A stretch of DNA of 64,000 nucleotides. It comes from an uncultured virus (IMG/VR IMGVR_UViG_3300021400_000104) (Duplodnaviria > Heunggongvirae > Uroviricota > Caudoviricetes). Positions 19,951 through 63,312 of the stretch are shown here, in pieces. The translations under genes and the position numbers were made by a program. The stretch lies in the IMG/VR virus record IMGVR_UViG_3300021400_000104. One strand, 5' to 3'. Positions within the stretch are counted from its first letter, which is position 1. Each line of letters opens with the position of its first letter. The notes under the pieces were generated by a model. It worked only from the letters and a program-made list of their open reading frames with translations, searched no databases and was not told the DNA's origin.

Positions 19951-21509
19951 TCCTCATCCTCCTCGTCACTCTTTGTCTTTTTCTCTTCTTCTTTCTAAGT
20001 TTCTTCCTTGGTTTCTTTCTCTGCTGGCTCACTTTCTTTTTTAACTTCTCCAATTGGTTCACCCTGAGCTTTACCTGACTATGTATAAGCAGACTGAAGC
20101 GGTTTAAGCACTTCGTCCAATTCGAGCAAATCATTTTCAAGGTCCTTTAATGCAGATAGATTCGTCTAATCTAGGCCAGTTGATAAAACGGGAGTTAAGA
20201 AACTATATCCGAAAGCTGCAAGTTCTTTTGCTCTCGAAGTATAATCTGCACTATTATAATAGCTAATCGGTAGAATTAATAACTTAAATTTTACTTTCTT
20301 ATTCTCAAATTTATAATTTAATAAAACAGTAAAAAAGTGCGCGAAGCGTTGACCTAAAATCATCATCATTGCTAAGTCATTATTTACAGAATACGCTAAA
20401 CCAGCTTCTGTAGTTGAAAAGAATAATTCTTTCGATAGACCGGCAGATTCATAAATCAAATTTTGAACATCTTCAATTTCAGTTTTTTCGTCATCATCGC
20501 TACTCATATCAAGTAAATCTACATTTGCATAAGTAGTAAGTACGTCAACATCCTCATTATTTGCAAGCATATCAATGCTACCCTTATGCATTTCATCTGC
20601 TTCATCTGGTTCAAAAACTAACTACATTCCATCAATTGGTATTTTTTGAACTAATATCTTTTTTAAGGCCTACATATTTCTTTGCTTATCAATATCTTTA
20701 TAATCGTCCAAATCATCAAGTAATGGAATTAAATCCAAGAAAAATGGACGTTCTTCAAAATATGAAAAATAAATTCCCATTTCCGCAGGTAAAAATATCC
20801 ATTTTGGACCATCATGGAATTTATACTTACGATATGCTTTTCCAATAATCTTAGGATATGTATCAATTATTTCTTTTCTAAGCTATTCATCTCTAATTGT
20901 ATCAAAAAAAGCCATATTAAACTCAACAATATCAACATCCTACGCATTTTTAAAACGACTCCTACAATAATCAAATGGCAAATCCTAAATTACTACTGCA
21001 TCTCCTTCATCATGAATTAATCCATAATAGGCTCCTTTAACCAAGACTTCTTTTGCGAATAGTGCGCATTTTCGATCAATCTAAAAATTCGTACAAAAAT
21101 CTGATGCATTATAATAAGAAATAGCGGTCTTTCTTTCACGGATATTTCCTCGTCCAGTTTTATCTTTTGGATATGGAACTAAAATCCAAGAATAGGTTAA
21201 AAATGTTGCATAATGAAGAATAATTCTTTTATATAATCCATTTGTTTGAAAAAAGAACTCTGAAAGTGCTGCGCGCTCAATTGGATTACCTTGCTATACA
21301 ATTCTTAAAATTTCATCTTTTTCATAGGAATAATTCCTATTTCTTAGAAATTTAGAATCTGTTTTTTCATATGCTTCTTTTGAGGTGGCAATCATATCCT
21401 TAAAAGCCTTTTTAAATTGGCCTAATCTAAATTCGATTATTTCCTTCCTAGCCTTTTCCTGCTACTAATTAATATTATGCAAGTCCATATTATTAATTTG
21501 ATTACTCAA
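19947..21509 (-). CDS. Portal protein (~520 aa, TAG read-through)
   Basis: Directly after terminase; size; acidic C-tail; TTG start with GGAGGTGG RBS (alternative ATG 21488). Confidence 0.7.
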
Positions 21510-24352
21510 TGTCTTCCACCTCCTGCTGTATAAAATACAAGTTTTCTTTTAAGCCCTCTATTGCGGCGATGAGACATAGCTTCAGATTCAAGTTCTACCA
21601 TTCGATATAATCCCATTTCAAAAGCCGAGAACTTATCTTTTGTCATTCTTGTATTAATCAATTCAACAGCAATCTAATTACTAACTCCAGTTGGTTTTAC
21701 CTTCAGATTCATAATTTCATTAATTAAGTTAGAAGTCAATTCATGGGGCATAAGACGAGCAATACGCTATTCTGGAGTCATTTTTACCCCAGCTTTGGTA
21801 GATAATAATTTTTCTTTAGCCTTCCTCTCTGAAATTAAGAAATTTACACAACCTGAATAAACTTTCGAATAAACCGCCGAATGCATTTCACTATTAATTT
21901 GAGAATTTGCCTTAATACCATATAAAATTTTTGGGCAATTTCTTGGCTATACTGTCATATATTCTTCTCTATTAAAGAAACCATAAGCCGGCAAGAATGT
22001 ATTTGTTGCTGGATCAAACGTTTCTTTAATCATAGCATCTGCAAAACCAACACCAAGTCCATTAATATCTATAACAACCTCTTTTGGATTAAAACGCTAA
22101 ATTAATCTCTTTAATTCAAGAACCTATATATCAAAAATCTTTTCATTTTCTGTCTTTCCAAGTACAAAAAGATTGACTAAATTACAGTTATATCTGTCTC
22201 CATTAGGAAAAACTTTTAGAACAACACAAACAGTCTAACATCCTCGTCTTGCCACGTCCACCGATAATAAGTAGAAAGATTCTATACCTGATCTAACAAT
22301 CTCATGAGTTTCAGGATTAGTTAATCTTCTATGTGTTAAAAATTTCTCATAATCAAACCATGCTTCACTAGAACTACCAACAAAACGACTCATATACTCT
22401 TTCGCAAAACCGGCTTCGCTAAAAGTATTTGACATCTACATTTCATTTAGGAAGTCTTTTGAAAGTAATCCTGTTTTAATCGGTACACGATAATCAAAAC
22501 CCCAAATGAATACATTATTCGGATTTATAATAGAAAGTTCCATCATCTCAATTGTTTTATCATAAGCAAAAGTGTTCTTATCTGATGCAGAAGAAATCCA
22601 CATCTAAACTTGCTAAGGTTCATAAGGATTTTTGTCCTAATTTGCCATTGGTCTATCAATATTAAGTAACGGCAAAATAATTTCGTTAATATCATTAGCA
22701 TCATGGTCTCTATATTCGTCAAGGATTCCTGCTGTGGCACGATTACCACGAGTAGAATTAATCGGAGACATAATGTCCATTATTGATCCATTTCTAAATG
22801 TTAATTTAACATAGTCATTACCAAAATTCCCTTCTCCAACTATTTCTTCTTTAAGTAAAGGCAATAAATCCCACAATTGATGAATTTTTTGATTAGCGAT
22901 TTTTGCTCCTTGTGCCTTACCTGGTCATTAAATTTAATTGAGGTCGTTAATCTCAATCCATATGGCTCATAGTTTCCTATGAGATTAGACTATATTATCA
23001 TCTCTATAAAGAGAGTTTGCTCTTTCGGAATACTTATTCCTACTCCTCTGTCGAGGATAGTCGTTGAACTAATATATTATCTATTTCTGACAATTGCTTA
23101 TATGAAATATATAGAATTTTATAACCTTTTTTTAAGGCTATTTTCTTCTTTCTTTCATCAATTTCTTGTTGAATTTTTAACTATGCTTCTCCGCCAAATT
23201 TTTCTACTGGTTCATAATGCTATCTTCCTTGAAATTCAATCAATAAATTAAAGGCAGGTAAATAAAAATCAAATGGAGCTTTTGTAATTTCCTCTAATCT
23301 TTTTTGTTCCTCGTATTTAATGTTATGATTATCAAGAAATTCTCTTATTTTGTTCTCTCCTTTCGAAATTATTTTTAAACAAGGACAGTGACTATGATAT
23401 AATAAATCTCTTGGCTAACATTCAAAATATTTACCACATTTATGAAGAATAATTCCTTTCTTTGACCAGCCTTTATATCTGTCAGGAATGATTTTATATT
23501 CATTAGGAAATATAGCATCAATACGTTCTTGTGCTTCTTCAATAGAGAGCATTTTCCCTATTTTATCTCCTTTATATGTTTTCGCACAATATACACAAAA
23601 ATTTTTTCGAGTTTTCTTAAAAAAATTATTTGCATATTTTATCGTAGTAATATTTCCACAGTCTAAACATTTTATTTTAAATAAAGAATGCATATTTGTA
23701 AATTCTAATATTTCATAATTAACATGACCATAAAGGTCAAGAATTTTTTTATCAATTTCTTCAATTGTCATTATAAGACCTCCTTAGTGCTGATTTTCCA
23801 TTAATAGCTTTTAGGATTTAACCATGAGCCATCCATTATTTTTTTTCTACTTTCGTAACCATCATATCTGAGGTTTTTTGATATTGTGGTAATAATGGCT
23901 TTAGGACGTTCCAGCTTTTAAGCAAATTTTTCAATCCATCTCACAATGGAAGGGCGCATTCAGGATTTCGCGCACTAAAAGACATGGCTACCGGGCCTAA
24001 AAATACAAATTAAATAAAGAGCTAAAATACAGATAAAAGATTTTCCTGCCGCACGAGGTGCAATTGTTAAAATTCTTCCGTGTCGAAGGCAAACTCTTAA
24101 AAAAACAATTTGGAAAAATTTTAATCGGAATTTCGAAGTAGTAGGAGTAATTAATTTAATATATAAATCGGGATAAACACTCCATAATCTGCAATATCTC
24201 TTATATAAATCAAAGTTTCTTTCAATTCTTCTCTCTGTAATAACCGCCCCTTTTTCAAGAGGGACGCCATCTCTCATAAACTCACGAGACGCTTTTCCTA
24301 CAACATAGTGCATAGTATTTAATATCTAGTTAGGAAATAAAATATTTATCAT
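21506..24352 (-). CDS. terL: Terminase large subunit; exons 23970-24352 and 21506-22925, split by group I intron; TAG read-through
   Basis: Walker A APRAAGKS, Walker B GILDEYR, nuclease motif LSVDVAR; splicing restores HVFQCA-PGKAQGAKIA. Confidence 0.85.
22926..23969 (-). mobile_element. Group I intron in terminase gene
   Basis: P/Q-like AAAAGCTGGAACGTCC and AAAATCAGCA, R GTTCAACGACTA, S AATATAGTCTA, terminal G; removal restores reading frame. Confidence 0.8.
23034..23771 (-). CDS. Intron-encoded homing endonuclease, Zn-ribbon repeats plus Vsr/DUF559-like nuclease (~245 aa, TAG read-through)
   Basis: CxxC repeats then SKGENKI..FDFYLP..LIEFQGRQHY, the second Q encoded by TAG. Confidence 0.75.
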
Positions 24353-24357
24353 AAATA

Positions 24358-25299
24358 TCACTCCAAATTAACCTTGAAATCTTCTTCGTCTAATGGAGCA
24401 GATCCTTTTTCTTTCATATAATCTCTGAGTTCAGATTCATTGAAATCATTGCCTTGAAGCGCAGCCGCCTATTTCAACTATTCAATTCTCTATTCAATTT
24501 CTTCTGCGATACCTGTCTCTCCAACATATAATGCCTAATTCCAAAGTTTTATGTCTTTAATAGTAAAATCTACTTCGTCTCTAATTGCTCCATCATAATA
24601 TTCATTTACCCATCCCTTCTTTTCCAAATAAGCAAACATTTCTCCTGTAGAGTTAAATTCATTAGCATCCTTAACTACTTTTGGAGTTAAATTTGCAATT
24701 TTAGATAATGTGTCATATGACTTTAATTCTTTATCAAATTCTTCTCCGGCACGAATTTTCTATTCTATAATCAAAGAAATCTTGCACAATTTAAGGGCCT
24801 AGTCTTCATTTAATGCTCCAACAATATTCTAAGAATTTAATAGTCCTTGATGTAAATTTTCTAAATACTCTAGTTCTTCATCATCATATGTCATGCCCCA
24901 TTTCTACTGCATCTTTCTGCGGGTCGCGGCGCGAGTTTCTGGAAGTGCATCTTCGACTCTATTTTCTTCTTTTAATGTTAAATAAACATCATTATACATT
25001 TTCCAGTCAAGAGTATCATAAGGCTTTCCTCTGAACATAGAAATATAAAAGCCAATAGCATCTCTTCCGTGTCCTTGATAAATTTTATCAAATTCTTCCG
25101 GAATAAATGGCACATCTGCCCACTGGCAAATCTTATCCATAGTATTCCAAAGTTCTCCGTCCTAATTCGCCTAATCTAACTACTTAGCTAAACATTGTCT
25201 GCAAATTGGCAAACTACCGCCATGAATAATAGAATTTACTGCAATATAATTAGCTACAGTTTTTTCTTCTCCACAGCGCTAACATTTTTTTAATGCCAT
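24358..25299 (-). CDS. Zn-finger protein upstream of terminase (possible small terminase; ~313 aa, TAG read-through)
   Basis: MALKKCQRCGE..PICRQC; position; function inferred from synteny only. Confidence 0.55.
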
Positions 25300-48409: not shown

Positions 48410-49033
48410 TTAAATCACATATTTCCATATGAACCCGTATGCTGTTTTTCGTTTTCCCTAACAAACATGATTTATATGAGAAGCCCCGCCATCTTTACCA
48501 ATAGCTTTTGCCGCCTCTCGTAAAGAGGAATAAGTAGCAAGGTACTCTCCATTTAACGAATACTGATTTACCATTTTTCCCCTTGTTTGTCGGAAATATT
48601 CTTGTGAACTTCTTACTTTTATATCGTTATTTTTTAATAATTCCGATAAATACCCTTCATTACATTCGCAAATTTCTGCAGTCTTCTTAATAGAATTAGT
48701 TCTTTTATAAGTCTCAAATAAAACACTATAATTAAGATATTTTCTTCCGTCTCCACCAATTGTCGCATTATAACCATTTGTAAAAGAATCAAAAAATTCA
48801 ATCCAATATCTTTCTCGCTCTTCGGGATTGTCTGTCTATTCAATTTCTTCTATAAAGAAATTTTCAATTCCATATTTCTACATTGCCAAATAAAGAGGGC
48901 GCTTTTCAAATTTATCATCATATGACTATGCATTCCGGCAATGCTCTTGGAAACGAATTTTTACATTTCTTTCCGTTTTTCCTATGTAAATTTTCCCATT
49001 TATTTTGTTAGTAATTTTATAAATGTATGCCAA
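48410..49033 (-). CDS. GIY-YIG homing endonuclease with NUMOD1-like domain (TAG read-through)
   Basis: YIYKITNKINGKIYIGKT..AM(Q)KYG..C(Q)GKRKTAYGFIWKY. Confidence 0.85.
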
Positions 49034-56780: not shown

Positions 56781-56857
56781 TGGCGACTCCAACCGGGTTC
56801 GAACCGGCGACCCCGTGCGTGACAGGCACGTGCTCTAGCCAACTGAGCTATGGAGCC
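56781..56857 (-). tRNA. tRNA-Asp(GTC)
   Basis: Cloverleaf with CCA. Confidence 0.9.
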
Positions 56858-56905
56858 ATTTTAGCGGTTTTCCACGAATAGAAGGGTCATCCGCCTTACC
56901 CTAAG

Positions 56906-56980
56906 TACCCCATATGGGAGTTGAACCCATGATCCTCGGATTAAGAATCCGATGCTTTCGACCATCTAAGCTAATGGGGC
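56906..56980 (-). tRNA. tRNA-Lys(CTT) by anticodon
   Basis: Cloverleaf, loop TT-CTT-AA. Confidence 0.8.
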
Positions 56981-57189
56981 ATTTTTGAGCATTCTGTAAT
57001 CAAACCGTACGCATTTCAATCACTATGCTCTGCTGTGTCTTCTTCCACAGTGCCAAGTCGCCATACTTTTTACGGACGATACGCTGTAGTCGCCTCAACC
57101 TTCCCTAACGACGAAGGGAACCGCCTCTCTGTTCTCGTGAGAAGTACCCCGATGGTCTGTTGATTTACGTCCCTAACCACAAGGACAAG

Positions 57190-57735
57190 CTGCCTCTGCC
57201 GGACTCGAACCGGCGACCTTGAAGTTGCTTACACATCAGCTCAAACTTCTTTTATCACCTCTTGTAATAAGAAGTCTTTTGCCCAAGTTATTCCTCGAGT
57301 TTGACCATTCTGCGCAGGTAAAATTCTGAACTTCTTATTATGTCCCTAACAAAACTGTACAGGGATAAGATAAGATTTTCCGTCAAAAACCGTAGCAAAA
57401 TAATCAATATCATCTTCAGAATAAGTGTGATGAATAATCTTACCATCTTTCCGATTACAACTTGTTGTTGAAATTCTAAAAGACGCACCATTATCATCAG
57501 ATGTTGCTGTTTTACTTTGTACCCTAATGAACTTCCCATCTTTATCTACTACAAAATCATAACGCTCACAATCCCCATATGGAGTAAGAACATTATAACC
57601 AAGTCTTAAAAACTCAAGGATAAGTTCAACTTCTGTTATATTTCCTTTTTGTTTTGAATTTAACTCTTTCATTAACATTAAAGTTTGAGGTCAAGTAAAC
57701 AGCTTCCTGCTACTACCGAACTGAGCTAAGAGGCA
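57190..57735 (-). tRNA. tRNA-Asn(GTT) interrupted by ~471 nt insert (57227-57697)
   Basis: 5' half TGCCTCT..GAAGCTGTT and 3' half AACTTCAAGGTC..AGAGGCAG rebuild a cloverleaf. Confidence 0.8.
57241..57678 (-). CDS. PD-(D/E)XK endonuclease (I-Ssp6803I/PDDEXK_5-like) inside tRNA-Asn; TAG read-through
   Basis: KGNITE..GYNVLTPYGDCERYDFVV..RVQSKT..IDYFA; frame continues past TAG to NGQTRGITWAKDF. Confidence 0.8.
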
Positions 57736-57741
57736 ATATAT

Positions 57742-57817
57742 TGGCTGGAGAGATGGGAGTCGAACCCACACCCTTCTGATTAACAGTCAGCTACTCTACC
57801 GCATGAGCTTCTCTCCA
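57742..57817 (-). tRNA. tRNA-Asn(GTT)
   Basis: Cloverleaf with CCA. Confidence 0.9.
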
Positions 57818-57824
57818 ATTTGTA

Positions 57825-57898
57825 TTGCGGGAGCCGGATTTGAACCGACGACCTTCAGGAAATGACCCTGACGAGCTTCCAGACTGCTCTATCCCGCT
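57825..57898 (-). tRNA. Initiator-like tRNA-fMet(CAT)
   Basis: 1:72 mismatch, fMet-type body, loop GT-CAT-TT. Confidence 0.8.
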
Positions 57899-57972
57899 AT
57901 TTTTAATTTTTCTTCTCTCTCAACTTCTATATATATTATATCATAAATTTCAAGAAAAGTCAAATAATTTAT

Positions 57973-58048
57973 TGGTTGCGATTATAGGATTCGAACCTAT
58001 GCGTTATCGAGTCAGAGCCGATTGCCTTTACCACTTGGCTAAACCGCA
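57973..58048 (-). tRNA. tRNA-Gln(CTG)
   Basis: Cloverleaf with CCA. Confidence 0.9.
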
Positions 58049-58290
58049 ATATATTTCCAACTCACTTGATGACGTCAAGTCAAGCAAGCTAACGACAAGG
58101 AAGGTGCCGACCTCAGAGTTGACAGAGGCATATCATAGCTAACGGTTCACGAAAGTAACTACTCTAACGGAAAATTGTGACATCTTTAATTTATTCTCAC
58201 GGAGTGAGGGACAATTCTCAAAAGCAATCTCTCCGATATATCCATGCATAGTATAGTCCAGCATGGCTAAGGACTTTAGCTTTTAATGCC

Positions 58291-58367
58291 TGGTGACGAC
58301 ACGGAGACTCGAACTCCGATTCTCCTCCTTGAGAGGGAGGCGTGTTATCCAGTTCCACTATGCCGCC
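58291..58367 (-). tRNA. tRNA-Glu(CTC)
   Basis: Cloverleaf with CCA. Confidence 0.9.
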
Positions 58368-58400
58368 ATTCTTTGGGGAGTCTTAATACTCCCCTAAGAT

Positions 58401-58877
58401 TTACTCAGTCTCGGTCTCGGTCTCGGTCTCGGTCTCAACAAGGGAATAACCCTTAACCTTAGACTTAGAACCCTCCGGCTTTACATCAGTTACCATTACA
58501 GTACCCTCAGCAATCGGAGATTTCATCAGAGCTGCAACCTTCTGCGAAGTAGTTACATCCTCAAAACCAAAGGCGCAAATGTCCTTTGCGGTATAAACTA
58601 CTCCAGGTGTCATCATCTGAAGAATCTGAACCTGACGTGCCTCATTTGCAAGCTGCTTAGCAGTAGGCTTAGAAGTAGCCTTGCGCTTAAAGTTCTTCTC
58701 GTCAATCTTGGTAATCTGTGCCTGAGCATACTCAACCATCTCGGGGATCAGCGCGCCGGTCTCATCAAAAATCGGCTTAGATACCTTAGCCGTCTCACCG
58801 GTCTCAGACTTGGTATTAATTACCAGAGTACCCGTAGTGAGTGCAGTCATAAAGCTCTTCATAGTAATAGCAGTCAT
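58401..58877 (-). CDS. Putative winged-helix DNA-binding protein with (ET)n tail
   Basis: Paralog of 34975/43262 (PTAKQ..SQKVAALM..KVKGY). Confidence 0.65.
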   Translation of the reverse strand: MTAITMKSFMTALTTGTLVINTKSETGETAKVSKPIFDETGALIPEMVEYAQAQITKIDEKNFKRKATSKPTAKQLANEARQVQILQMMTPGVVYTAKDICAFGFEDVTTSQKVAALMKSPIAEGTVMVTDVKPEGSKSKVKGYSLVETETETETETE

Positions 58878-58996
58878 AGTTTTCTCCTTTTCTCCGGATT
58901 TTATCCGGTGTGGACTTTTCTTCTCGTTTACTATATTAATTATAGCATAATTTTTAAGAAAAATCAAATTATTTATTGGTTCCTTCCATTTGGAAG

Positions 58997-59527
58997 TGGT
59001 AGGAGGGGTGGGAGTTGAACCCACTCACCCAGAGGGAACGGTTTTTGGAGATAAATCTTAGATTTGAACTAAGTACTTATGTGTTTGAAAACCTTGATTA
59101 TTCGCAGTTGGTTCAGTTCTTAAAGAAACTTGATTTTTAGTTCCAAAACTACGAATATCAGACATTGGAATTACAAACAGGTTTAATTCATTATCAGCAC
59201 AAAACAAGATGTCTAAAGGATGCTCAAGAATGTTATCATAAGTTGTTCCTTTTGTGCCGCCTGTAGAACGGAAGCTAATTACTTTGTCTTTACTTGATGT
59301 AAACTTACATTGAACGGTTTGGAATATTCCGTCTTTCTCTATGATTAAATCATACCATTGAGTATCATTTAATGGAAGAGAAACTGTATATCCATTAGTT
59401 CCAAAATAAGCTATTGCAAGACTTAAACCCGCTTTTCCTCTGTCTTTATTTGTTTCTAACTACATTCGTATCCTCCCTTAGGAATTTACCACAGACCGCC
59501 GCGACTCGCCATCTTCGCCGCCCTCCC
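58997..59527 (-). tRNA. tRNA-Tyr(GTA) interrupted by ~445 nt insert (59046-59490)
   Basis: 5' half GGGAGGG..GCGGTCTGT and 3' half AAAACCGT..long variable arm..CCCTCCTACCA. Confidence 0.8.
59058..59465 (-). CDS. PD-(D/E)XK endonuclease (PDDEXK_5-like) inside tRNA-Tyr; codon 2 is TAG
   Basis: AAGGGAGG RBS; M(Q)LETNKDRGKAG..GYTVSLPLNDTQWYDLII..TVQCKFT. Confidence 0.8.
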
Positions 59528-59678
59528 ATTATTTGAGAAGTACCGCCCGCTTCTCCACCGCATGACATCCCTTAGCCGCCATGCTCCTACGGTTTCCTTA
59601 CAAACCGCCAAAGATTTTTCTAATCTTGTGTGAAGTAGTTACGAAAGGCGGGGTGTCACACGCATTGCCCTCTTTCTT

Positions 59679-59754
59679 TGGTGGGAAGAGAAGGAGTCGA
59701 ACCTTCGTTCTCGCGTTTTCAGCGCGGCGCGCCAACCGTGTACGCCATCTTCCC
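59679..59754 (-). tRNA. tRNA-Phe(GAA)
   Basis: Cloverleaf with CCA. Confidence 0.85.
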
Positions 59755-60377
59755 ATTTTAATACTGGTTTATTTTTTTGTTTACGCTTATCCAGTTGCGT
59801 ATCAAGGGATTCTACCTCCATCCGTCTTTATAAAGACGTCTGCAATCGGCTCTCCATCACGTCTAAAGCCGCAAGACTGGTTTTAGTGACTTTTCCTTGT
59901 CCCTTACTTTCTATAAAATTATATCATATTTTTTAAGAAAAGTCAAATCTTTGTTTGTCTCTTCTTTCCTTATGCTTATCAGGAATAATCTTAGTCATCG
60001 GGGGAACTTCCCACATAATTCGCTTTTGCTTATCAAACTCTCGCTGAGCCTTCTTAGACATCTTCTCATAAGGAACGAACTTCTGTTTCATTTTCTTTCC
60101 CCCTTTTCTATTATTATTATATCATAGTTTTTAAGAAAAGTCAAATAATTTTCTGTTTCTGTCTGGACAATATAGGCGCCTATATTGCCCGTTTAACGTT
60201 GCAGAACCAACGGATTTTTTAACTAAAGTTTTCTCTTCGGCGCATTCACCTCAGCACATATCGGGCAGAGTTCCCGTACTCTCTGCGAGTTAACATCACT
60301 TCGTAGATGTTCAACGCCAGTTCACTTAGAACTAGAAAGGCATTCTCGTTCTTCAGAACTCGAGAAGAAACTGGTAC

Positions 60378-61098: not shown

Positions 61099-61851
61099 TT
61101 AAATTTGAGACCATTCAAGGTCAGACATTTTCTTTATGTCTGTTGTCCGTCTTGGTAAATTATAAAAATCACACCACTTACGAACTGCATTATCTGTCAC
61201 CCCATAATCTCTACCTATCGCAGAAAAATTAGAAGTTCTTAGTTTAATTTTTAATTCTTCTCTGGATGGACGTTTTGTTTCTCTCACTCTATCTCGAAGT
61301 CTTCGTGCTGCTTCACAAGATTTACAACGACAAGCCCCAAATGAAATTTCTCTCCCACAATCAACACAATAGTAAATCTTTCTTGATGTGTCGATAATTG
61401 GATAAGAAATACCAATCTACGGACGAGTTTCTCCTAAGTTAAGTAAACTTACTTCTCGTTGTGAAATATGAAACTTCTCTGCAATTTCTTGCTATGTCGC
61501 ACCGCCCCTCAATAAATCATAGATTTGAAGAACCTCCTAATCAGAAATCTTGAAATTTATCTCCGCCGGCGCATCCCCGCCAGCAGTAAGATTATATCCA
61601 AAATCTGAATTATTAGACTGATAAACTTCTATCCAATATCGCTCCAAGTTATTAAGGTCTGTCTTATCACACTCTACTAAAATTTCAAACGTGAAAGCAT
61701 CAAGACCATACTTCCTCATTGCTTTATATAGGTATCCATCTTCTGTCTAATATCTACTTCTATGCTCTTTCCATCTGCGAGAAATATTGACAGATTGCCC
61801 AATATACTTTTTCCCATTTATTGTATTTGTAATGACATAAATTCCAGTCAT
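61099..61851 (-). CDS. GIY-YIG homing endonuclease (~250 aa, TAG read-through)
   Basis: MTGIYVITNTINGKKYIGQS..RRWKEH..AMRKYG..GYNLTAGG; fragments 61537-61719 and 61099-61287 in frame. Confidence 0.85.
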
Positions 61852-62965: not shown

Positions 62966-63312
62966 TGGTGGAGGCGGAGGTGATCTGCCCACCTCGTCCA
63001 AGCATCCGCCACTTTATTTTCTACGAGTATAGTTAATCAGCTTTCTCTTTCTTCTCGTGCCGCCGACCAACAAATTACACGATATGTCATATTGCAAAAA
63101 CAAGCAAATCAACTGCAATAATCTTTTGATTGCCGGCACAACAAAATATTAAAGAGTCAAATCCGTGTGCAAGATGTGAACTCAAATCAAGTGCAGCTCA
63201 CGCTGCGAGTGCATAATTGTAATTAGCGTTTATTTTTAACTACGTTTTTAAGTTACGTTAAACTACCCGCTTATAAAGTTTAAGGACACCTGTCGAATCT
63301 AAATACGCCCCC
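62966..63312 (-). ncRNA. ssrA: tmRNA
   Basis: GGGGGCG..ATTCGAC 5' end, CGCCTCCACCA 3' end with G3-U70, tag ORF (A)ANYNYALAA-TGA after ATAAAC. Confidence 0.9.

Follow-up and report, generated by a model that had tools for sequence, protein, structure and literature searches.

Is a protein-coding gene that lies inside the anticodon loop of a transfer RNA (tRNA) gene removed from the transcript, and if so, by what? The question is raised by two tRNA genes of a gut phage, an uncultured Caudoviricetes virus (IMG/VR record IMGVR_UViG_3300021400_000104), analyzed here as a stretch of 64,000 nucleotides (nt), hereafter the window. Its genes for tRNA-Asn (57190-57735) and tRNA-Tyr (58997-59527), both on the minus strand like all their parts described below, are each split at the anticodon by an insert that carries an endonuclease open reading frame (ORF). 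We assign these inserts to a widespread mobile-element family of large phages, whose members combine a PD-(D/E)XK homing-endonuclease gene with non-coding ends of 30-40 nt and reside exactly within the anticodon loop. That the inserts are removed by protein-dependent splicing we consider an even prospect; below, this reading is weighed against permanent retention of the insert, against excision by a ribozyme, and against an artefact.

Two tRNA genes split in the anticodon loop

The tRNA-Asn gene is interrupted between nt 36 and 37. Its 5′ exon (nt 1-36; 57735-57698, 38 nt) ends in CTGTT; together with the 3′ exon (nt 37-73; 57226-57190), in which CCA is not encoded, it forms the acceptor and anticodon stems. 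The insert of 471 nt (57697-57227), detected by ARAGORN with introns allowed, is occupied by a 145-amino acid ORF (57678-57241; TAG at codon 111) for an I-Ssp6803I-like endonuclease of the PF11645 family. Its non-coding part totals 33 nt, with 19 nt before the ORF (57697-57679) and 14 nt after it. ARAGORN called the locus Asp(GTC) with a 471-nt intron, because the boundary was placed one base to the left. The site between nt 36 and 37 of tRNA-Asn(GTT) was set through the homologous insert of Enterococcus phage EFP01 and the uninterrupted allele in Enterococcus phage iF6 (see below).

The tRNA-Tyr gene is interrupted between nt 35 and 36 by an insert of 445 nt (59490-59046). The 5′ exon (nt 1-35; 59527-59491) ends in CTGT, and the 3′ exon (nt 36 to CCA; 59045-58997) includes a long variable arm. 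The ORF, also of the PF11645 family (59465-59058; 135 amino acids, TAG as codon 2), is flanked by 25 and 12 non-coding nt, 37 nt in total. ARAGORN with introns allowed made no direct call of this split gene; in silico splicing of the locus yielded an 86-nt tRNA-Tyr(GTA) with a long variable arm. Both genes were overlooked by ARAGORN in its default mode because each is split in the anticodon loop, and default tRNA finders would miss other split genes of this kind. A previous sequence-only reading of this DNA had described the same two split genes, and its coordinates and insert lengths proved exact. Its further claims that each insert holds a single PD-(D/E)XK ORF with short flanks and that the insert ends pair with each other were borne out for both inserts.

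Endonucleases encoded by the inserts

Both ORFs are open only with TAG read as a residue, and each contains one in-frame TAG. The Asn-insert enzyme (P0001) matched PF11645 with E 4.9e-30 and 104.8 bits, and the Tyr-insert enzyme (P0002) with E 9.5e-15 and 55.3 bits (cut-off 26.1). P0001 also matched the I-Ssp6803I structure 2OST_A (E 4.3e-9). Over 82 aligned residues, P0001 and P0002 are 32% identical. E16, D41, Q54, and K56, the putative catalytic residues, are invariant in 28 homologs, and the YD...VQxK motif lines up with 2OST. P0001 has 562 homologs at E<=1e-10.

The second codon of the Tyr-type ORF is TAG in the window (ATG TAG, 59460-59465), in L006 (ATG TAG), and in L033 (TTG TAG). The Tyr-type enzyme could thus be made only with an active phage suppressor tRNA. 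No tRNA(CTA) was found within the window; in a related genome (G004), a tRNA(CTA) at L102:17131-17205 adjoins the split tRNA-Tyr.

RNA structure and conservation of the Asn type

For pair counting, 23 Asn-type loci were aligned. The acceptor stem forms across the insert in 159 of 161 cells, and every one of its pairs has changes on both sides. The helix continues past the anticodon stem with U33-A37 and then with pairs between G34, U35, and U36 and the last three bases of the insert; in the window, these are AGC (57229-57227), which pairs with T36, T35, and G34. The first three insert nt (TAC, 57697-57695) pair with nt 4-6 from the insert end (GTA, 57232-57230). An internal loop follows, with 5′ YUGAC and 3′ CUGAUGU in the main clade (TTGAC at 57694-57690 and CTGATGT at 57239-57233 in the window). 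Beyond it, a further helix that includes the stop codon closes the ORF, its strands being CTCAAACTT (57689-57681) and AAGTTTGAG (57248-57240). With these end pairings, the pre-tRNA takes the form of a tRNA body whose anticodon stem carries on into a long, irregular extension. The exon-insert junctions flank the anticodon triplet in this structure; they are 3 base pairs (bp) apart, one on each strand of a continuous helix. Across all 23 pairs (519 cells), 95.0% of the cells pair, compared to 62.7% in shuffled controls (0 of 500 shuffles as high) and 39-48% with slid partners, and covariation is present among the pairs inside the insert. Minimum-free-energy folds of whole precursors recovered the acceptor and T arms and missed the comparative helices, and they were not used as evidence.

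The last three bases of the insert vary with the host tRNA. They are AGC in tRNA-Asn (GTT), AAA in tRNA-Lys (TTT; L063), and ATC in tRNA-Ile (GAT; L070, L071, L073, and L106). The AGC version includes a conserved U.G wobble, which points to the RNA rather than the DNA level.

Among 11 sequences of the main clade, the mean pairwise identity was 0.91 for the 5′ and 0.96 for the 3′ non-coding end, compared to 0.86 for ORF codon positions 1+2, 0.62 for position 3, and 0.70 and 0.57 for the two exons. The few non-coding bases are therefore the most constrained part of the element, which moves between tRNA genes that differ considerably. In L057 and L058, nearly identical inserts were observed in different tRNA bodies.

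Distribution of the Asn type and an uninterrupted allele

P0001 alone as a query retrieved no viral loci; the alignment of 28 homologs retrieved 35 loci from IMG/VR. In 33 of the 35, ARAGORN (option -i) placed the ORF inside a split tRNA, the inserts being 442-485 nt long, and both tRNA halves were visible by eye in the remaining two (L050 and L078). All 35 ORFs are open when TAG is allowed. Across the whole family, insertions were found at three loop positions, 36/37, 35/36, and 34/35. The recurrence of the element at the same tRNA position in many phages shows that these are not one-off insertion accidents, as the sequence-only reading had argued from the two window copies. Its expectation that homologs would be located in tRNA genes held for all 35 Asn-type loci and failed for much of the Tyr type (see below).

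ARAGORN -i also detected this arrangement in a cultured phage, Enterococcus phage EFP01, whose enzyme is 50% identical to P0001. Among 31 Schiekvirus records that match the EFP01 region, the insert is present in two (both EFP01), and the remaining 29, which are near-identical relatives, contain an uninterrupted tRNA-Asn. The sole difference of the EFP01 allele from that of iF6 is its 463-nt insert, placed between nt 36 and 37 in such a way that every tRNA base is kept and none is duplicated. A search of IMG/VR for exact matches to the exons of the window, as intron-less alleles of its own tRNAs, returned none. In a set of one genome for each of 185,579 species, four loci were found, all on contigs of metagenome-assembled genomes with tRNA arrays (Bacillota, Clostridium, Erysipelotrichaceae, and a partial match in an Acidobacteriaceae assembly), and three of the four have a split tRNA.

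Two further arrangements were noted. In L080-L084 (e.g., L080:642-1183), a distant Asn-type relative with 41% identity splits a class I tRNA in the loop TTTT...AAA. The anticodon could be TTA or TAA, depending on the junction, and the ORF has TAG at the invariant Tyr of the family. In G004, ARAGORN reported a tRNA with an 861-nt insert beside an intact tRNA-Asn (L102:15175-16110), which may be a further, larger intron.

Tyr-type inserts and their relatives

The 43 IMG/VR loci with P0002 relatives were sorted by eye. Brute-force in silico splicing with ARAGORN gave many spurious tRNAs and was used only jointly with anticodon-stem pairing. Nine loci have a split tRNA-Tyr with intact exons, interrupted at 35/36 in L006, L007, L027, L028, L034, and L035 and at 34/35 in L026, L032, and L033. 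Nine others are split and damaged. The variable arm is lost and the anticodon changed in L036 and L037, the loop is altered in L040-43 and L048, the 5′ part is deleted in L047, and L038 is unclear. In 20 loci, a free-standing ORF lies directly upstream of an intact tRNA-Tyr, and five loci have another arrangement.

The ends of the Tyr type were compared in the window gene and the nine intact split loci. Nine of these ten have a helix of 6-9 bp that begins with insert nt 1 and whose first pair is invariably G-C; in the window it is formed by GGTAAATT (59490-59483) and GATTTATC (59057-59050). In eight of the ten, the helix is followed by a 4-nt tail, TCCA or ACCA (TCCA at 59049-59046 in the window), which resembles a tRNA acceptor end. 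In L032 the tail is just A, and L026 has disrupted end pairs. Of the two junctions, the 5′ one is at the foot of the helix, and the 3′ one falls in an asymmetric loop. The 34/35 type uses the tRNA's own T35-A36-A37 as the stop codon of the ORF. With an end structure other than that of the Asn type, the Tyr type may be handled differently. One tentative idea is that the G1-C helix with its NCCA tail could act as an acceptor-stem mimic for ribonuclease (RNase) P.

Proposed removal of the inserts by proteins

The proposed mechanism has an RNA and a DNA side. A protein nuclease, possibly the encoded endonuclease itself, would cut the insert from the pre-tRNA at both junctions. The tRNA halves would stay together through the acceptor and anticodon stems, and an RNA ligase (a phage Rnl-type enzyme, RtcB, or a host enzyme) would seal them. 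Where a co-infecting phage has the tRNA gene uninterrupted, the endonuclease would cut that DNA, and homing would copy the element into it. As a lead for removal by proteins, the homologous I-Ssp6803I is reported to cleave DNA on both sides of the anticodon triplet, with 3-nt 3′ ends as the product; the RNA junctions would then repeat the geometry of the DNA cut. An RNA-level role of the insert ends, most simply in excision, is supported by the pairs that track the anticodon, the conserved non-coding bases, the exact insertion at three loop positions, the intact exons of nearly all Asn-type loci, and the enrichment of ligase genes described next.

A ligase gene was scored as present when PF01139, PF09511, or PF09414 matched above the Pfam cut-off. 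Ligase genes of the RtcB, Rnl1, or PF09414 type were detected in 22 of 31 genomes with a split tRNA, in 4 of 13 genomes whose enzyme relative is located outside a tRNA, and in 3 of 4 genomes with a decayed split copy. The difference between 22/31 and 4/13 is suggestive of enrichment in carriers (Fisher p = 0.02, related genomes counted separately). No ligase was detected among the 40 ORFs scanned in the window.

In a narrower form, the element would be a ribozyme-free mobile tRNA intron, in which its own PD-(D/E)XK enzyme or another helix-reading protein cuts both sides of the anticodon triplet and a phage ligase reseals the ends. We rate this specific version as unlikely. If the narrower version is true, the anticodon with the last three bases of the intron would be an RNA copy of the DNA target of the endonuclease, and one small protein would be both the homing nuclease on DNA and the splicing nuclease on RNA. 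The system would then be the bacterial equivalent of archaeal and eukaryotic tRNA splicing, having arisen independently.

Several observations weigh against removal by proteins. At the level of nucleases, EndA (PF01974) had no match in five carrier phage genomes, a set that did not include the hosts; in a control with 14 genomes, PF01974 matches were confined to the four archaea. RNase III cuts with a 2-nt stagger, which the 3-bp stagger of the Asn-type junctions does not fit. A bulge-helix-bulge, with two 3-nt bulges and a 4-bp helix, is not formed at these junctions. The archaeal- or eukaryotic-like protein splicing proposed in the sequence-only reading has partial support, in that ligase genes are present in most carriers, whereas no nuclease of that type was found in the five carrier genomes. 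The ligases themselves are of two chemistries, RtcB in four carrier genomes and ATP-dependent types in the others, and 9 of the 31 carriers have no ligase match. Some loci are imperfect. The split tRNA-Asn of the window has a G27.A43 mismatch and the split tRNA-Tyr a C at position 8, the D arm of L065 contains an 8-nt duplication, and L107, an Ile-type locus, retains AGC, so that one anticodon pair is mismatched. Finally, an ORF-less mini-version with a gap of 0-30 nt was not found in IMG/VR, and together with the open state of all ORFs this gives no sign of an intron outliving its endonuclease.

The assembled RNA data bear on the same point. Contigs of two gut metatranscriptomes, X3 from the probable source sample and X4 from another study, extend over both ORFs and over 58394-58828. 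In X3, the contig 57005-57439 continues through the Asn 3′ junction without splicing and extends beyond the 3′ end of the tRNA, and no exon-exon joint was found in the assembled contigs, which cannot show mature tRNA. The intact tRNA genes at 57910-58364 are likewise without cover. The X4 contigs end at 57199 and resume at 57232, bracketing the Asn 3′ exon, at a depth of 2-5, and their uncovered parts are no evidence. We concluded that RNA libraries contain both ORFs and that these contigs carry no information on splicing.

Possible permanent retention of the insert

The strongest rival holds that the insert is never removed. A homing-endonuclease gene would reside in its own target, inactivate a dispensable phage tRNA, and persist by homing drive. 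The helices would then serve expression of the endonuclease, either by using the tRNA body as a stable, processed mRNA scaffold in a promoter-less array or by regulating translation. We hold this to be a real possibility, short of the one that we would back. It draws on the unspliced RNA and the missing product and nuclease described above, and also on several properties of the family. Half of the split Tyr copies (9/18) are decayed and 20 of 43 Tyr-type relatives are free-standing beside an intact tRNA-Tyr, and relatives in the cultured Kuttervirus, Thalassavirus, and My1 phages are located between tRNA genes. The near-confinement of the element to phages, with its near-absence from bacterial genomes, fits an insert that is tolerated only in dispensable genes. 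Within the window, default ARAGORN called a second tRNA-Asn(GTT), uninterrupted and differing in its body, 6 nt upstream of the split one (57742-57817, minus strand), which could serve as a spare. In EFP01, the only carrier among the 31 Schiekvirus records, the element arrived recently, and because the exons are far more diverged than the insert, exon integrity may merely reflect recent invasion.

Other observations do not fit permanent retention. A scaffold helix need not track the anticodon in three host tRNAs, nor keep the sequence of its loop 91-96% identical. Both tRNA halves persist in all 35 Asn-type loci, with visible damage in L065 only. A spare tRNA-Asn is not always at hand. In G001, a complete genome of 129 kb with 16 tRNAs, the split gene is the sole tRNA-Asn (its tRNA-Tyr is the deleted L047), and no second tRNA-Asn was found in the 40 kb of EFP01 that were searched (90-130 kb of the genome). 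The enrichment of ligase genes in carriers also speaks against this explanation.

The two outcomes differ in what they imply. If the inserts are removed, phage RNA ligases (Rnl1, Rnl2, and RtcB) gain a role beyond the repair of tRNA damage. If they are not, a homing endonuclease colonizes tRNA genes without an intron and yet evolves a precise RNA structure at the anticodon, which needs another explanation. The splicing question is directly testable, because the cultured phage EFP01 carries the element and close relatives exist without it.

Search for ribozymes

A further rival is excision by a small or unrecognised ribozyme, self-splicing or self-cleaving, built from the conserved ends or from RNA inside the ORF, with an RtcB-like ligase involved if it cleaves only. 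A scan of 56800-59900, which covers both inserts, against Rfam at E<=10 returned tRNAs and noise alone, with no group I (RF00028) or group II match, and 20 related loci scanned at E<=1 contained no intron family. The same scan recovered a weak Intron_gpI match in the terminase gap used as a control (22966-23114; 27.8 bits, E 1.4e-4). The window inserts thus have no detectable group I or II core, in line with the sequence-only reading, which had likewise contrasted them with the terminase intron. The terminase large-subunit gene itself is split (21506-22876 and 23960-24361), and the gap between its parts (22877-23960) holds a 245-amino acid ORF (23034-23771).

Covariance models do not recognise a motif whose halves are separated by a 440-nt ORF, and a small bipartite ribozyme is thus compatible with the negative scans. 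Consistent with such an RNA, the roughly 37 nt of non-coding ends are very strongly conserved, and RtcB, a joiner of ribozyme-type ends, is encoded in four carriers. The F. prausnitzii hepatitis delta virus (HDV)-like ribozyme model also gave sub-threshold matches at L066:1179-1246 (38.4 bits) and L056:286-343 (33.5 bits), with a cut-off of 44. These start right after tRNA 3′ ends in related arrays, which suggests a ribozyme that cuts tRNA trailers.

The remaining features speak against a catalytic RNA in the inserts. With the boundary set by the uninterrupted allele, the final insert base is C in the Asn and Ile types and A in the Lys and Tyr types, not the terminal G of group I introns. Both junctions lie within a paired helix, and the loop sequence is not kept in distant members (L074, L078, L079, and the Ile group). 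No RNA is common to the two endonuclease clades and the three insertion sites. Taken together with the Rfam results, these properties make a ribozyme improbable. Four explanations of the Asn-type ends were checked by eye, namely a hammerhead, a K-turn, RNase III with its 2-nt stagger, and a target-site duplication, and none fits. The Asn-type loop (5′ YUGA-C, 3′ C-UGAUG-U) shows a possible similarity to the tandem G.A core found in box C/D motifs.

An assembly or annotation artefact, in the form of chance tRNA-like pieces or a chimeric contig, can be set aside, since DNA contigs of run X1, which may represent the source sample, span 57000-57853 and 57827-59700 without differences and the same architecture recurs in a cultured phage and in dozens of independent contigs; the split-tRNA region is no assembly artefact.

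The tRNA array and other features of the window

In addition to the two split genes, the minus strand of the window contains 23 tRNA genes and a transfer-messenger RNA (tmRNA) gene by default ARAGORN and Rfam; the Rfam scan of the whole window at gathering score gave 22 tRNAs and one tmRNA. The phage-borne tmRNA gene is located at 62966-63312 (103.7 bits), and a tmRNA adjoins the split tRNA in L071 as well. Two free-standing GIY-YIG endonuclease genes lie amid the tRNA genes (48410-49033 and 61099-61851), indicating that the array has been colonized by several kinds of homing endonuclease.

The 209-nt spacer from the split tRNA-Asn to tRNA-Lys (57005-57199) is represented by RNA contigs in three RNA runs from two studies, all of which start at 57005-57007. 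It has no Rfam match and no long ORF, and its RNA may be a stable non-coding RNA. Comparable G+C-rich spacers are found at 58049-58290 and 59528-59678. The structural genes of the window (1-27000, minus strand) are open only with TAG as a residue, one frame of 639 amino acids containing 28 TAGs. In the region 27000-48000, long ORFs are scarce even with TAG read through, and many short frames overlap on both strands.

Comparison with known systems

To our knowledge, tRNA introns of bacteria and phages are known only as self-splicing group I introns, and protein-dependent tRNA splicing is regarded as an archaeal and eukaryotic trait. T4 SegB is a free-standing homing endonuclease of phage tRNA clusters, an example of intronless homing. 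The elements described here are like SegB-type enzymes in their phage tRNA array and in a target in the tRNA region; in contrast to them, the gene lies inside the tRNA, and its ends pair with the anticodon. Bacterial 23S rRNA intervening sequences are cut out at a helix and are not re-ligated, and the fragments still work. They are similar to what is proposed for the phage inserts in a protein-mediated excision at the base of an extended helix in bacteria. However, the stagger here is 3 bp rather than 2, and without religation a tRNA with a broken anticodon loop would be non-functional.

The closest relative by enzyme family is I-Ssp6803I with its group I intron in the Synechocystis tRNA-fMet gene (2OST; PF11645), which also shares the anticodon-loop target and presumed homing. 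The phage elements differ in having 33-37 nt of non-coding sequence, no group I match, and a last base other than G. In the portion of PMC3384342 covered here, I-Ssp6803I is described only in its cyanobacterial group I intron. In the full-text literature covered, supplements aside and including parts of PMC7886860 and PMC7824862, endonuclease inserts of phage tRNA genes that lack a ribozyme are not described. The present analysis contributes the covariation with the anticodon, the counts across the family, the example in a cultured phage together with its empty allele, and the tally of ligase genes.

The introns of archaeal and eukaryotic tRNA genes, which are removed by EndA/Sen with RtcB or Trl1, resemble the phage inserts in their anticodon-loop site, in pairing between intron and anticodon, and in exons that the tRNA body would hold together and a ligase would have to join. 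The phage inserts differ from them in that no bulge-helix-bulge is formed, the junctions lie 3 bp apart in one helix, and no EndA was found in the carrier phage genomes searched. Moreover, the insertion is located at position 36/37, 35/36, or 34/35 rather than 37/38, and a complete protein gene makes up the insert. Phages would possess a third, independent solution to tRNA splicing if such inserts are removed.

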